Positions 10,414-17,050 of a DNA stretch of 35,656 nucleotides are shown in pieces (positions within the stretch are counted from its first letter, which is position 1; every line of letters starts with the position of its first letter). The stretch is taken from positions 1-35,656 of the forward strand of contig JAFGOA010000106.1 of the NCBI GenBank assembly GCA_016926735.1, written 5' to 3'. A model generated the notes under the pieces. That model was not told where the DNA came from. It ran no database searches and worked only from the letters and a program-made list of their open reading frames with translations. The DNA is from Promethearchaeota archaeon. Its GTDB lineage: Archaea; Asgardarchaeota; Lokiarchaeia; Sigyniarchaeales; SOKP01. Position numbers and translations under genes: made by a program.

Positions 10414-12027
10414 TTAATTATTTTTTTGTTTCATAATTTTATTTAGACCATTTAGAAGAGCTAATACCGAACTCATTACTATATCTTCATGAGTTGCACT
10501 TGTTTTAACAATTTGATTTGAATCAAGATCCATAAGTTCTATTGTTACATGGCCTAAAGCTTCAGTTCCACCAGTAACTGCATCAATATTATATTCAAGT
10601 AGTTTTACTTTACTCATAGGAGCAAAACATTTGACTATTGCTTTAATAGATGCATCAACAGAACCAACTCCTACTGAAGAAGCTGTTTTTCGAATAAATG
10701 AACCATTATTTTTAATTTTTAATCTTACTGTTGAGGTTGGCGTTACAGAACCAGTTAAAACAGTTAGTTCTTCAAGTATAACATATTGTTCTTGTTTAGG
10801 AATCTCACCCATTACATCTTTAACAATTGCGAGAAAATCTTCTTCTGATACTTCATGACCTTTATCTCCAAACCTTTTGACATGATCAAATATATTTTTA
10901 AATTGCTCCTCAGTTGGTTTTAATCCAAGATCCTCTAATTTTGCTTTAAGTGCATGACCTCCTGTATGTTTTCCAAGTTTAATAGATTGCTTTACAATTT
11001 CTTCAACATTATCCGTTCTTTTAATTCCAATTAATTCTGGTGTAATAGGTTCAAAAGATCTTGCATGTTGTATCATAGCATGGGCATGTATTCCTGATTC
11101 ATGAGCAAAAGCATTTTGCCCTATTAATGGTTGAAGTCGACCAATTTTAATCTTTCCACCACAATAACTCTCAACTAATTTTGCTGTAGGAAATATTAGT
11201 CTTGTATTGATATTCATTGGTAATCCATAAAGAGCATATAAAGACATAGCAGTTTCTTCAAAAGATGCATTTCCTGCACGTTCTCCTAGCCCCATTATTG
11301 CTGTTTGAGCTTCAGATGCACCATTTTCAAATCCTGCGATTGTATTTGCTACTGCTAATCCAAAATCATTATGACAATGGACAGCTATTCTAATGTTTTT
11401 CGGTAATGCTTCATAATTTTTTTTAATAATATGACCAAAAGCCGTAGGTGTTATTGTTCCTACTGTATCGGGAATATTAACTCTTGTAGCACCACATTCT
11501 ACTGCTAAAAGATTTGCTTTTAAAAGATAATCTAAATCTGTTCTTGTTGCATCCATCGCTGAAAATAAAACTGTACTGTAATGTTCTTTAGCATAAGTAA
11601 CTTGTTCTGTAATACTGTTAAGGACATCTTCTCTTGTGCATTTCATTTGTTCTTTTATATGTAAATCTGATGTTGAAATAAAAACATGTATACTATCCAT
11701 ATCTGCCTCTATAACTTTATCTATATCAATTTTCATCATTCGAGCCAGTCCTATTATCTCAGAATTTAATCCTAATTTTGCAATATCTTTACATGCAGCA
11801 AAATCACCATCTGATGTAATAGGAAATCCCGCTTCAATAATATCTATTCCTAAATTACTAAGTGCCTGTGCAATAGAAAGCTTCTCTTCATGAGTAAAAC
11901 TAATCCCTGGTGTTTGTTCACCATCTCTTAGCGTTGTATCAAAAAAATATGCTTTTTTAGGAAGACAAAGAGTATTTCTTATCTTATCCATCATTCCTGA
12001 GACACTTATTTCATCCATTTCCACCAT
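10414..12027 (-). CDS. leuA: 2-isopropylmalate synthase (archaeal LeuA/CimA family)
   Basis: FDTTLRDGEQTPG, IEAGFP, PDTVG, HCHNDFGLAVAN, GLGERAGNA, FAHESGIH, LGKHTG, and a C-terminal regulatory domain (GVGSVDA, AVTGGTEA). Motifs alone cannot exclude citramalate synthase; the Leu-rich leader favours LeuA. Confidence 0.85.
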   Translation of the reverse strand: MVEMDEISVSGMMDKIRNTLCLPKKAYFFDTTLRDGEQTPGISFTHEEKLSIAQALSNLGIDIIEAGFPITSDGDFAACKDIAKLGLNSEIIGLARMMKIDIDKVIEADMDSIHVFISTSDLHIKEQMKCTREDVLNSITEQVTYAKEHYSTVLFSAMDATRTDLDYLLKANLLAVECGATRVNIPDTVGTITPTAFGHIIKKNYEALPKNIRIAVHCHNDFGLAVANTIAGFENGASEAQTAIMGLGERAGNASFEETAMSLYALYGLPMNINTRLIFPTAKLVESYCGGKIKIGRLQPLIGQNAFAHESGIHAHAMIQHARSFEPITPELIGIKRTDNVEEIVKQSIKLGKHTGGHALKAKLEDLGLKPTEEQFKNIFDHVKRFGDKGHEVSEEDFLAIVKDVMGEIPKQEQYVILEELTVLTGSVTPTSTVRLKIKNNGSFIRKTASSVGVGSVDASIKAIVKCFAPMSKVKLLEYNIDAVTGGTEALGHVTIELMDLDSNQIVKTSATHEDIVMSSVLALLNGLNKIMKQKNN

Positions 12028-12066
12028 TTTTTTTAACCTATTGTAAATTGTTTATTTATTCAATAA

Positions 12067-12128
12067 CCTTTTAATACCTATAAGAAAAAATTTGTTTTCT
12101 TATAAGGCATTATAAGGCGCCTTATAAT
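12067..12128 (-). promoter_or_regulatory. Attenuator-like alternative RNA hairpins in the leuA leader
   Basis: Perfect 20-bp palindrome ATTATAAGGCGCCTTATAAT (12109..12128) overlaps the uORF stop. A competing long stem (12067..12117) pairs CCTTATAATGCCTTATAAGAAAA with TTTTCTTATAGGTATTAAAAGG around loop CAAATT. Both stems use the CCTTATAAT segment. Confidence 0.65.
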
Positions 12129-12220
12129 AATAAAAGTAAACTTAAAAGTAAGCTCAAGGATAAAACGTGCTCCAAATTGAATATACTATAACGATTTTTT
12201 ATATTTTGAAGCATCTTCAT
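12122..12220 (-). CDS. Putative leucine leader peptide (uORF, 32 aa) MKMLQNIKNRYSIFNLEHVLSLSLLLSLLLLL
   Basis: Translated by hand: ATG at 12220 preceded by AAGGAATAAAAAA, TAA ending at 12122. It has 12 Leu, 10 of them in the last 13 codons, and ends 94 nt upstream of the leuA ATG on the same strand. Confidence 0.7.
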   Translation of the reverse strand: MKMLQNIKNRYSIFNLEHVLSLSLLLSLLLLL

Positions 12221-12341
12221 TTTTTTATTCCTTAAGTTTTGATAAATTATATTAATTATATACTGAAATAAATTAAAATTTTACTGAAAAGAAAAAAATA
12301 AAATTTTTAGTAATTATTTTAGTACTATTTTAAATTCTTTC

Positions 12342-13532
12342 TTAAAGTCTACTTAATAAAATTTTTCTTATATTTTCAGTACCTAATTCAATTGGATTGT
12401 TTTTCATACTTGTTTTTTCAATTATTCTGTTAAGATCCTTTTCCTTAATACTATAATTCCTTAATCGGTTAATGTTTAATTTATTAGTCCAATTTTTTAA
12501 TTTATCTAATAAAGAATTAAGATTAGTCTCTAACTTATCGTTACTAATCTCAAGAGTAGAGTCTAGGAATAAAGACCCAACTTTTGCATATTTTTTCAAA
12601 TATTTTATTCCTTCTGATTTATTATGCTTCAATTTTTCTATATTCATTTTTGTTGCTTCGTATAAAAGCGTTCCACATACAACTCCATGAGGTATTTCAA
12701 AAAATCCTCCAATTGAGGATGCTAAACCATGTATTATACCTAATCCCGCATTTGCTAATGTTATTCCTGATATTAAAGACCCATATGCCATATATGTTCT
12801 CACATTGATATCACTGGCTCCATTAGTACACGCTAATAAAATATTATCTTTCATATATGTCATTCCATTAAATGCTAGAGCATCTGTAATTGGACTTGAT
12901 ATTGATGATACATATGATTCAAGTAATTGTGTAAAAGCATCCATACCACATGCAGCTGTTACCGAAGATGGACATGATAACATCAATTCTGGATCTATAA
13001 TTGCAATATTTGGTATAAAATTATCATGTCTCAATGATTTTTTAAATCCATTTGGCCCAGTTTCACTTATTACAGCATTTTTTGTTGTTTCACTACCCGT
13101 TCCTGATGTTGTAGGAATTGCGATATATGGAATTTTTCTACCATCATGTAATTTTGTACCTACTCCTTCAAGATAATTTCTTATTGAGTCTTCTTTTGTT
13201 AACATTGCTGAAATAGCCTTTCCTCCATCAATTACACTTCCTCCTCCAATTCCTACAATAAGGTTTAGTGATGATTTCTTAAACTCCACTACAATATTAT
13301 CAATAATCTCAGGAGTTGGTTCTTTTGAAATAGAAATATATGAATAATTTAATTGTTTTTTCTCAAGATTCTTTATAATTTCTCCTAATTTTCCTGATTT
13401 GATAAGAGAATTTTTACCAATAACTAATAATAGCCTATTTCCAAATTTTGGAATAATATTCCAAAGATTTCGAAGTGTACCTGCTCCAAATTCTATATAT
13501 GGTGTACTTACAAATTTAAATCCTTTAATCAT
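12342..13532 (-). CDS. Iron-containing alcohol dehydrogenase
   Basis: IEFGAG, EPT, GIGGGSVIDGGKA, AIPTTSGTGSE, IIDPEL, GMDAFTQLLESY, NAGLGIIHGLA, IPHGVVC, NNP. SD-like GTGA upstream. Confidence 0.93.
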   Translation of the reverse strand: MIKGFKFVSTPYIEFGAGTLRNLWNIIPKFGNRLLLVIGKNSLIKSGKLGEIIKNLEKKQLNYSYISISKEPTPEIIDNIVVEFKKSSLNLIVGIGGGSVIDGGKAISAMLTKEDSIRNYLEGVGTKLHDGRKIPYIAIPTTSGTGSETTKNAVISETGPNGFKKSLRHDNFIPNIAIIDPELMLSCPSSVTAACGMDAFTQLLESYVSSISSPITDALAFNGMTYMKDNILLACTNGASDINVRTYMAYGSLISGITLANAGLGIIHGLASSIGGFFEIPHGVVCGTLLYEATKMNIEKLKHNKSEGIKYLKKYAKVGSLFLDSTLEISNDKLETNLNSLLDKLKNWTNKLNINRLRNYSIKEKDLNRIIEKTSMKNNPIELGTENIRKILLSRL

Positions 13533-15247: not shown

Positions 15248-17050
15248 TTATTTTTTATATAATTTTTTTAAAAGTTCTTTTACTTCTTGAACAGCTGAAT
15301 TTTGTCCTAATTTTTCTAATACCTTTGAACTATCCATGAAATGATTATATGCATCATCATTATCTCCTTTTTCCATATAACATTTTCCAATATTAGCCAA
15401 CTGCATACCCATTCCTTGCAAATGTCCAAAAGACTGATTTATCGTATATGCTCCTTTAAATTGATCTAATGCTTTGTCTAATTCCCTTTTTTTAAAATAT
15501 ATCTGCCCAAGATTACTGGTAATTGTTGCTTTTAAAGTTGATTTATGCCAATCAATAATACCTCGTGAATGATTTTTATCAACCTTTTTGTTTTGAGTTA
15601 TAACCCTAGCTCTCATTGAAGGTTGAAACTTAGGATTATAATCTTTTTTTAATTCTATCATTTCAAGCTTTTCAAGAGCATTTTTAAAAGAAATTTCAGC
15701 ACTATCAAGATTTCCATTCATCATATGTACTGTTCCAATATTATTATATATTACAACAAGATCTTCATAATTTTCATCCATAGTATTACAATTTTTACTT
15801 ATATTTACATTATTTAAAGCTAATTGGAAATAATCAAGTGCTTTTTGTGTCTTATTTTGTTTAAAATAAGATAAACCTAATAAATTATAGAATTGAAAGG
15901 AATATTTTATTTTATTAGATTTTTTTATTAATTCAATTCCTTTTAAAATACAATATTCTAAATATTGAAATTTAGATAAATTATAATAAATCTGCCCAGC
16001 ACATCTATATTTTAGAATATCTGAAAAATTATTGTAATAAGTTTTTATCCAATCTGAAAATTGAGTTATATTTGATTTTTTTGAAATAAAATCATAGATG
16101 TCATTTAATTTATAGCTAAGAATACTATTCCATAAATATTCTTTAACAAAATTAGCTGTGTGTGTTTTAATATAAAAGATTTCACAATCAGTATTGTTCA
16201 AAAATTCTACTAATACAAAAGGTATATGTTTCAATTTCTCTTTTCTTTTTGTAGCTCCTCCGATATATTCTTCGATTACTAACTTTCTCTTATGTGTATG
16301 TTCAATCCAAATGATTCTATTAATATCTTTCATTTCTGATATCATTGGACCCAAATCAAAATCATCTCCACCTGAATACCCAAGTATCATAAGAGTACGA
16401 TTTTTAATTAGATTATCAATTACTATTTTTTTATAAGATTCAATTGCAAATATCTTACCTTCTTGTTTATTCCTTCCTAAAGAACTGATAGTAGTTATTA
16501 ATGATTCTCTTGTATCAACATTATCAATAAAATTCTTTTTTGAACCATGAATTTTCCAAAGAGGGTATAAATCTTTTAAGAATAATTCTTCTGGATTTTG
16601 ATATTTTGTAAAATCCTCATATGTTATTATTGGTTTTATTTTTGAGATCTTTTCATTATCTATAATTTTAACAAGAGCTTTTTCAATCATAGGGTCAAAA
16701 TTTGTAGTTAGTACATAATTACCTTGCAAGATTGAATATGCCAAAAAATAATGAATTAAATTTGGGTATGAATTTATCTCAAAATAATCTAAAAATTTTA
16801 AATCTTTATCAAAAATATCTTCGATATATTCAATTATAATTTCATATCTAAGCTTATCAAGAGCCTTTAATTTCAAAATTTTCTTTCTTTCATCTTTTGG
16901 AATAATATATTTTAGTAAAATTTCCACAATATTGCGAGCTGAAGGAAAATTAGTAGGAAAATCCATTGATATTCCAGCGCCAACTAAGTAAGTTAAATTT
17001 TCTTTTTGATTAATTAATTTCGTGCAAAATGATTTCAAATCTATTTGCAT
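15248..17050 (-). CDS. SIR2-like (SIR2_2) domain plus C-terminal TPR repeats
   Basis: YLVGAGISM..P, LTTNFD, WKIHGS, ILGYSGGDDFD. TPR helices YNLLGLSYF..A, YNNIGTVH, SNLGQIYF..ALDQF, LANIGKCY. AAGTGATCC SD upstream. Confidence 0.85.
   Translation of the reverse strand: MQIDLKSFCTKLINQKENLTYLVGAGISMDFPTNFPSARNIVEILLKYIIPKDERKKILKLKALDKLRYEIIIEYIEDIFDKDLKFLDYFEINSYPNLIHYFLAYSILQGNYVLTTNFDPMIEKALVKIIDNEKISKIKPIITYEDFTKYQNPEELFLKDLYPLWKIHGSKKNFIDNVDTRESLITTISSLGRNKQEGKIFAIESYKKIVIDNLIKNRTLMILGYSGGDDFDLGPMISEMKDINRIIWIEHTHKRKLVIEEYIGGATKRKEKLKHIPFVLVEFLNNTDCEIFYIKTHTANFVKEYLWNSILSYKLNDIYDFISKKSNITQFSDWIKTYYNNFSDILKYRCAGQIYYNLSKFQYLEYCILKGIELIKKSNKIKYSFQFYNLLGLSYFKQNKTQKALDYFQLALNNVNISKNCNTMDENYEDLVVIYNNIGTVHMMNGNLDSAEISFKNALEKLEMIELKKDYNPKFQPSMRARVITQNKKVDKNHSRGIIDWHKSTLKATITSNLGQIYFKKRELDKALDQFKGAYTINQSFGHLQGMGMQLANIGKCYMEKGDNDDAYNHFMDSSKVLEKLGQNSAVQEVKELLKKLYKK

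Follow-up and report, generated by a model that had tools for sequence, protein, structure and literature searches.

We show here that the gene for 2-isopropylmalate synthase (leuA) of a Promethearchaeota archaeon of the class Lokiarchaeia is preceded by a short leader open reading frame (ORF) that ends in a run of leucine codons, placed between two predicted RNA helices. The gene is located on contig JAFGOA010000106.1 (assembly GCA_016926735.1), a stretch of 35,656 nucleotides (nt) that is referred to here as the window. The leader element is real, conserved and not a product of chance. Judged by its sequence features it probably acts, at an estimated probability of roughly 80%, as a cis-acting, ribosome-read leucine gauge for leuA. 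A preliminary description of this DNA had proposed an upstream ORF (uORF) that senses Leu-tRNA. This idea is now strongly supported by the conservation of the ORF with synonymously varying Leu codons, by its exclusive linkage to leuA and by the existence of leaders for isoleucine and tryptophan.

The leucine-rich leader and its conservation

The 32-codon minus-strand ORF ending in a Leu run was found exactly as described when the sequence was re-read. Read from 12220 to 12122, its product ends in LSLSLLLSLLLLL directly before the stop. A Shine-Dalgarno (SD)-like AAGGA is present upstream at 12233-12229, 8 nt before the ATG, and the distance from the leader stop to the leuA ATG (12027) is 94 nt, as had been stated for the gene of the first Leu-synthesis enzyme. 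The identity of this gene is given by its match to NF002085 with 573 bits. The features of the locus are as follows (UTR, untranslated region; BRE, transcription factor B recognition element).

10414..12027, minus strand: leuA (2-isopropylmalate synthase), the presumed regulated gene, 537 amino acids; NCBIfam NF002085, 573 bits, cut-off 517
12122..12220, minus strand: leader ORF, ATG plus 31 codons plus TAA (32 codons); direct reading, ORF found in 34 of 41 leuA upstream regions
12125..12163, minus strand: putative Leu-rich control stretch, the final 13 codons with 10 Leu, the last five codons before the stop all Leu
12229..12233, minus strand: leader SD-like AAGGA, 8 nt 5' of the leader ATG; G-rich SD-like motif in 24 of 34 related leaders
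12272..12282, minus strand: TATA/BRE-like A/T box AAAATTTTAAT, probable promoter of the leader-leuA transcript; transcription predicted to begin about 30 nt 5' of the leader ATG
12153..12236, minus strand: helix P1, in which 12200-12236 (5' UTR including AAGGA and ATG) pairs with leader codons 12153-12185
12066..12118, minus strand: hairpin P2, 53 nt with 22 base pairs, beginning 3 nt past the stop codon; -22 kcal/mol, z -5.5
12028..12065, minus strand: A-rich spacer from P2 to leuA, without U-runs, holding an SD-like AGGT (12036-12039) 8 nt before the leuA ATG

The genome (3.88 Mb in 238 contigs, 26% GC, completeness rated 99%) is rich in A and T, and the preliminary description had itself cautioned that TTA and CTT codons are common in such DNA. 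Controls were therefore drawn from the same genome, using crude gene calls (ORFs of at least 100 codons, overlaps resolved) that gave 3026 genes at 80% coverage. A first control set comprises 1965 ORFs that begin with ATG, have 10-80 codons and lie upstream of 2257 of the called genes on the sense strand. No ORF in this set other than the leader before leuA reaches 10 Leu within a window of 13 residues; the next highest count is 8, found in two ORFs, and either 8 Leu of 13 or a run of five Leu is reached by just three others. A second set holds 1873 small ORFs with a stop 50-160 nt before a gene. Compared to these, the 72 nt 3' of the leader stop fold with -22.0 kcal/mol, while the genome mean is -5.5 (standard deviation 3.2) and the first percentile -15.4, and the leuA leader has the most stable post-stop fold among the 8 ORFs of this set that pass both filters. 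The caution about composition is fair, since Leu makes up 11.6% of the residues in random small upstream ORFs and TTA accounts for 53% of the Leu codons in this genome's genes, but it fails to account for the run. Genome-wide, the leuA leader is a unique outlier, and comparable Leu-run uORFs before unrelated genes are rare.

Conservation of the leader was analyzed in 41 distinct leuA upstream regions, obtained by a LeuA search of 41 related genomes together with a genome collection (Promethearchaeota) after removal of three duplicates. An ATG ORF with a terminal Leu run and a stop 82-102 nt before leuA is present in 34 of the 41 regions, a count that overstates independence because the related genomes are kin. 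Two further regions are incomplete: in L002 the contig end cuts inside the Leu run, and L017 contains an assembly gap, yet a Leu-rich ORF and a match to the structure model are found further upstream. A leader was not found in the remaining five regions (L021-L025), which belong to the most distant leuA orthologues (55-65% identity). Leader-bearing loci are spread over several genera from no fewer than two families of the order; L018-L020 belong to family f2. Two loci, L043 and L044, come from records titled Hodarchaeota and Odinarchaeota; their LeuA is 77% identical to that of the window and their leaders fall into the same subgroups, so that these titles are probably labelling differences rather than a sign of wide spread.

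While the N-terminal halves of the 34 leaders have diverged freely, the C-terminal ends are strongly constrained. In the last 13 codons Leu occupies 298 of 442 positions, encoded by TTA (222), TTG (35), CTT (29), CTC (10), CTA (1) and CTG (1). The peptide ends in Leu right at the stop in 31 of the 34 leaders and an unbroken terminal run of 4-7 Leu occurs in 29. The other residues in this stretch are mainly S, N, E and D, and I, V, F, M and A together account for 22 positions. These mostly polar non-Leu residues indicate selection on Leu codons and not on a membrane helix. The Leu-run uORF is thus retained among relatives, with synonymous variation of its Leu codons, as the check proposed in the preliminary description had asked for.

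Signals for expression accompany the ORF. A TATA-like match lies within -85 to -45 of the leader ATG in 24 of the 34 leaders, in most cases 53-65 nt before the ATG. The AGG of the SD-like site of leuA is invariant in the leader alignment. Across the genome, the distance of G-rich SD-like motifs to the start codon peaks at 8-13 nt; hence both the leader AAGGA and the invariant AGG before leuA stand at the typical distance. In the window copy the Leu run (12125-12150, minus strand) contains a 12-nt tandem duplication (TTACTTTTAAGT / TTACTTTTATTA), which suggests that replication slippage may lengthen the run.

Two helices and the specificity of the element

Minimum-energy folds of the leaders place the Leu run between two helices. 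In the first one, P1, the 5' UTR with the SD-like site and the ATG pairs with codons at the beginning of the Leu-rich stretch, 33-50 nt ahead of the stop. The SD core of the leader is paired with a probability of 0.84 (24 leaders with the motif), compared to 0.61 in 300 control genes. Arms taken from the same locus pair with -14.8 kcal/mol and arms swapped between loci with -10.0 kcal/mol. Owing to this pairing, a conserved S-L-G/S-L motif in the peptide is largely the coding face of the anti-SD strand.

The second helix, hairpin P2, is found 3' of the stop in all 34 loci (again in minimum-energy folds). It is mostly 47-67 nt long and begins between -3 and +6 nt relative to the end of the stop codon. 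From its end to the leuA ATG there are 25-44 nt in 33 of the 34 loci, the fold of L043 being the outlier. The folding energy of P2 has a mean z of -3.6 relative to dinucleotide shuffles, and 30 of the 34 hairpins lie below -2. A first covariance model, built from nine close sequences, matched the element on the leuA strand in 31 loci. For the 23 best matches, 88.4% of the cells are paired, compared to 66.3 ± 1.4% after shuffling (none of 500 shuffles reached the observed value), each of the 20 pairs carries changes on both sides, and the covariation score is 0.632 versus 0.256 for shuffled sequences and 0.10-0.23 with partners slid; the alignment behind these values was fitted to the model, which makes the fit of own-locus and other-locus arms useful as an independent check. 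In this check, P2 arms of the same locus reach -21.5 kcal/mol and arms swapped between loci -12.7 kcal/mol. RNAalifold predicted no structure on a plain MAFFT alignment of the 34 leaders, because the helix arms are misaligned there.

The loops of P2 vary in sequence and length among the related leaders. Its lower stem shows a strand asymmetry in 31 related leaders: the 5' strand is pyrimidine-rich, CCUUC-like and thereby anti-SD-like, and the 3' strand is purine-rich, GAAGG/GGAGG-like and thereby SD-like. Flips from C-G to G-C are nearly absent in these leaders despite ample covariation. One of the two strands may therefore have an additional, sequence-specific role.

The element is also specific in its genomic location. 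A broader covariance (structure) model of P2, termed R2, matches this genome once (12050-12148, minus strand). In 151 genomes sampled from the class, 26 were matched, with one match each. All 26 matches lie directly upstream of a leuA orthologue, and 25 of them are accompanied by a complete Leu ORF. The matched genomes all belong to family f1 (26 of 26), with none among the 24 genomes of six other families; the filters for R2 are strict, and it does not pick up the f2 leaders known from the ORF scan. A search of 11900-12450 on both strands against the Rfam 15 families, with E values up to 10, yielded six chance-level matches far below the gathering score, none of them an amino-acid leader. Here, the Rfam Leu_leader (RF00512) gave no match, and the best unrelated family reached an E value of 0.11. 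A T-box or a ligand-binding riboswitch was considered and rejected: Rfam provided no match, the P2 loops are variable, and it is instead the in-frame ATG, the stop and the Leu codons that are conserved.

Leaders for isoleucine and tryptophan

The preliminary description had suggested scanning other amino acid pathways for uORFs rich in the cognate residue. Citramalate synthase (cimA), which catalyzes the first step to isoleucine, is encoded on contig C95 (38253-39851, minus strand; TIGR00977, 687 bits). A 26-codon ORF with an Ile-rich end lies 121 nt before it (about 39973-40053, minus strand; locus L052). Ile-rich leaders occur at 14 of 22 evaluable related cimA loci, this genome included, while 2 of 24 loci are cut by contig ends. 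The cimA leaders are followed, 10-14 nt past the stop, by a hairpin made up of a conserved 12-nt inverted repeat; by eye, an arm of this hairpin resembles the promoter-like box of the leuA leader.

The trp operon of this genome is located on contig C50, where a 16-codon ORF with two Trp (about 13010-13060, minus strand) precedes the first gene (11533-12591, minus strand) by 418 nt. Trp makes up 0.6% of the residues in random small upstream ORFs of this genome. In the related loci (L081-L099) an ATG ORF with at least two Trp stands before the trp operon in 16 of 18 cases, and in 15 of those 16 the list, read by eye, shows 2-5 Trp clustered at the C-terminal end. Of these 15 loci with C-terminal clusters, 14 have 140-438 nt between the leader and the first gene of the operon. 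In this genome an 83-codon ORF sits between the Trp leader and the trp operon.

The survey of other pathways was thus borne out for Ile (cimA) and Trp (trp operon), with leaders that recur in relatives, but not for His, as no His-rich ORF was found upstream of hisG. Both the Ile and the Trp leaders were found solely by inspecting pathway genes. An enrichment scan for other amino acid runs in the small upstream ORFs of this genome revealed no further case that is statistically clear. At least three product-matched leaders, for Leu, Ile and Trp, are therefore present in this genome.

The remaining genes for Leu synthesis are dispersed. leuA is solitary here and lies outside any leu operon; a leuB-like gene (339 bits, slightly below cut-off) and the large subunit of an archaeal isopropylmalate isomerase (485 bits, above cut-off) are encoded on other contigs. 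The large subunit of acetolactate synthase was not found in this genome, the best match to TIGR00118 having 23.5 bits. With leuA, a leuB-like gene, isopropylmalate isomerase and cimA present, the lack of acetolactate synthase calls into question where the 2-oxoisovalerate for LeuA comes from. One possibility is reductive carboxylation by a 2-oxoacid:ferredoxin oxidoreductase encoded on contig C119. This four-gene cluster (gamma, delta, alpha, beta) belongs to the pyruvate/2-ketoisovalerate family. A 34-codon ORF whose second half is nearly all Leu, Val and Ile (about 15578-15682, minus strand; locus L051) lies 79 nt before the cluster. This ORF may act as a branched-chain leader or encode a small membrane peptide.

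Sensing, read-out and relation to known systems

The proposed gauge would work on a single transcript, predicted to begin about 30 nt upstream of the leader ATG, that carries in this order P1, the Leu-rich end of the leader, the stop, P2, the spacer and leuA. A shortage of charged tRNA-Leu would stall the first ribosome on the Leu codons, whereas an ample supply would let it proceed to the leader stop. The footprint of a ribosome extends about 12-15 nt beyond the P site. A ribosome stalled at most of the Leu codons would then cover the 3' strand of P1 and leave P2 free to fold, whereas a ribosome at the stop would open the first 3-7 pairs of the 8-pair lower stem of P2, with P1 reclosing behind it and shutting the leader's own start site. 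This geometry of stalled and terminating ribosomes leads us to prefer a co-transcriptional read-out, in which an intact P2 would shield the untranslated gap. If P2 were opened by the terminating ribosome, the nascent RNA might be exposed to the archaeal termination or cleavage machinery, and leuA would be under-transcribed when Leu is plentiful. That P2 is protective and the decision co-transcriptional is, on this model, a tentative preference held at well below even odds.

A number of results weigh against the gauge or against individual steps of it. None of the read-outs considered received positive support from the tests run. Beyond the five distant leuA orthologues without a leader, the kinship of the genomes behind the counts, the fitted P2 alignment and the missing His leader, public RNA data (three RNA runs, one DNA run) contained just short leuA-like coding pieces and left the leader uncovered. 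Alternative pairings showed no locus-specific fit, with z -0.04 for 5' UTR:P2 5' arm (1:3), +0.32 for 2:4 and -0.16 for the Leu run with the 3' arm of P2, and their energies equal those of negative-control pairs, although the test leaves room for weak or generic pairings. The 5' half of P2 alone folds weakly (z -1.1). The spacer 3' of P2 (54% A, 28% U) contains a U-run of at least five in 3 of 33 loci, compared to 31% of 38-nt windows drawn at random from upstream regions. For the leuA SD the pairing probability is 0.52, compared to 0.61 in control genes. Leu run and spacer form 12.3 predicted pairs on average, the same as with shuffled spacers (12.3). With a ribosome placed on the Leu run, the predicted energy needed to open the leuA start region falls from 4.12 to 3.54 kcal/mol, a gain of 0.58 with p 0.13.

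The closest competitor for the read-out is translational attenuation. Here, the Leu run would be clamped by P2 onto the A-rich spacer and the leuA start, and a stalled ribosome would open this pairing together with P1, leading to more leuA initiation. The tight spacing between P2 and the leuA ATG (25-44 nt in 33 of 34 loci), a spacer that is A-rich and without U-runs, the mean of 12.3 Leu-run/spacer pairs with at least 5 pairs in 26 of 33 loci, and a P1 helix that itself masks a start site are all in line with it. A precedent is the actinobacterial LEU element, which, in the description of it given by Seliverstov et al. (2005; PMC1262725), pairs Leu codons with the leuA SD. However, shuffled spacers pair equally well, the pairing of the leuA SD is not unusual (0.52 vs 0.61), and the gain in opening energy is small and non-significant. 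As a specific helix, the Leu-run/spacer pairing cannot be told apart from composition, and a stalled ribosome unmasks the leuA start site to no significant degree in these predictions. The Trp leaders, 140-438 nt away from the trp operon in 14 of 15 loci, are moreover too far from it if all leaders share one mechanism. We regard translational attenuation as slightly less probable than the co-transcriptional read-out. The probability that remains beside the read-outs discussed here falls to mRNA stability or other routes.

Classical attenuation, in which P2 is an intrinsic terminator whose action is prevented by a Leu-stalled ribosome either directly or via an antiterminator, was implied by the comparison with bacterial leuL in the preliminary description. 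This part of the proposal found no support in that form, since there is no U-tract 3' of the hairpin and no antiterminator pairing was detected. The layout is like that of leuL and trpL, P2 is stable, conserved and placed directly 3' of the leader stop, and U5-U7 tracts were seen about 60-90 nt 3' of several Trp leaders (by eye, uncounted). Against this, U-runs of at least five occur in just 3 of 33 post-P2 spacers where the background is 31%, and a U-run of at least four within 15 nt of P2 is found in 7 of 33 loci. A terminator hidden in U-runs inside P2 was dismissed, as U-runs of at least five in 13 of 33 hairpins are about what we estimate from the 31% background for windows of this length. 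The antiterminator candidates (1:3, 2:4 and Leu run:P2 3' arm) fared no better than pairs from other loci or negative controls and provide no locus-specific alternative pairing fit for such a role. By geometry it is also the terminating ribosome that reaches P2, while a ribosome at most of the Leu codons stays short of it. Classical attenuation is thus improbable.

Still less probable is a reading in which the leader encodes a small hydrophobic peptide as a gene in its own right that terminates at P2, while leuA is served by a promoter in the A/T-rich spacer. The hydrophobic run at the peptide end and TTAAA-like boxes 3' of P2 in many loci would fit this. However, the run consists specifically of Leu (298 of 442 positions; 22 hold other hydrophobics) interspersed mainly with polar residues, the N-terminal part is kept as RNA pairing and not as peptide, the element is strictly linked to leuA, and the Ile and Trp counterparts stand before their own pathway genes. 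A transcription start 25-30 nt 3' of a TTAAA-like box would, furthermore, fall beyond the invariant AGG. Practically negligible, finally, is an origin as an AT-rich chance product or (TTA)n microsatellite: 26% GC, the 53% TTA among Leu codons and the 12-nt tandem duplication would favor it, but the leader is a unique outlier in the genome-wide controls, its frame, position and flanking structure are kept across genera with covariation, and these controls, the conservation and the linkage to leuA already refute a chance origin of the leader ORF.

In enterobacteria, leuL before leuABCD as well as trpL, hisL and ilvL are leader-peptide transcription attenuators. The archaeal element shares with them a short leader ORF (here predicted to be translated), a run of codons for the own pathway, a stable hairpin behind it and a position before the first biosynthetic gene, and also the occurrence of several product-matched leaders per genome. 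It differs in its archaeal host, in a Leu run that abuts the stop, in the lack of a U-tract 3' of the hairpin and of a detected antiterminator, and in the extra helix P1 that masks the leader's own start site. The sensing step would be as in bacterial attenuators, but by the features tested the element is not a member of that family. Other arrested leader ribosomes are known from the translational attenuators ermC and cat and from TnaC, which sense drugs or free tryptophan via the nascent peptide; in the tna operon the arrested ribosome blocks the access of Rho beside the stop codon. As in ermC/cat and tna, an arrested leader ribosome would alter the accessibility of nearby RNA without a classical terminator or antiterminator, while the signal here would presumably be hungry Leu codons instead. 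By analogy, the archaeal counterpart of Rho would be FttA/aCPSF1.

The LEU element before leuA of actinobacteria is similar in that a Leu-run uORF is placed in a compact conserved RNA structure with no obvious terminator, as far as the description of that element goes (Seliverstov et al., 2005; PMC1262725). That account describes a pseudoknot at whose base the Leu codons pair with the leuA SD, and it cites mutational data according to which the Leu codons do not matter. In contrast, two separate helices flank the Leu run of the archaeal element, and the run pairs with the spacer no better than expected from composition.

According to a 2021 paper, neither attenuation nor antitermination is known from archaea (PMC8448881), and a 2025 commentary lists attenuation solely among the bacterial consequences of transcription-translation coupling (PMC13681488). 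We found no report of an archaeal leader-peptide sensor in open-access papers and bioRxiv. With due reserve, and with the odds rather against us, we put forward an Asgard family of Leu, Ile and Trp leaders that would act as two-helix, ribosome-gated switches without terminator or antiterminator, in which the terminating ribosome would break P2 and expose the RNA to FttA/aCPSF1, or a translational equivalent of this. If this is true, archaea would gain their first example of attenuation-type control, and coupling of transcription and translation would be functionally proven in the prokaryotes most closely related to eukaryotes. The system would sit between bacterial attenuators and the regulatory uORFs of eukaryotes, in the lineage nearest to the organisms where such uORFs are common. 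A conserved set of product-matched leaders would extend ribosome-read control of amino acid synthesis beyond bacteria, and it would offer a compact natural reporter for archaeal transcription-translation coupling and FttA-type termination. The departures from the bacterial model, namely the Leu run at the stop, the lack of a U-tract and of an antiterminator, and the masked leader start, turn the mechanism into a testable question.

Upstream of the leader lies an alcohol dehydrogenase-like gene (12342-13532, minus strand). Between this gene and the promoter-like box of the leader, a T7 run is followed by a T4 run (12291-12299, minus strand), plausibly an oligo-T terminator that separates the two transcription units.

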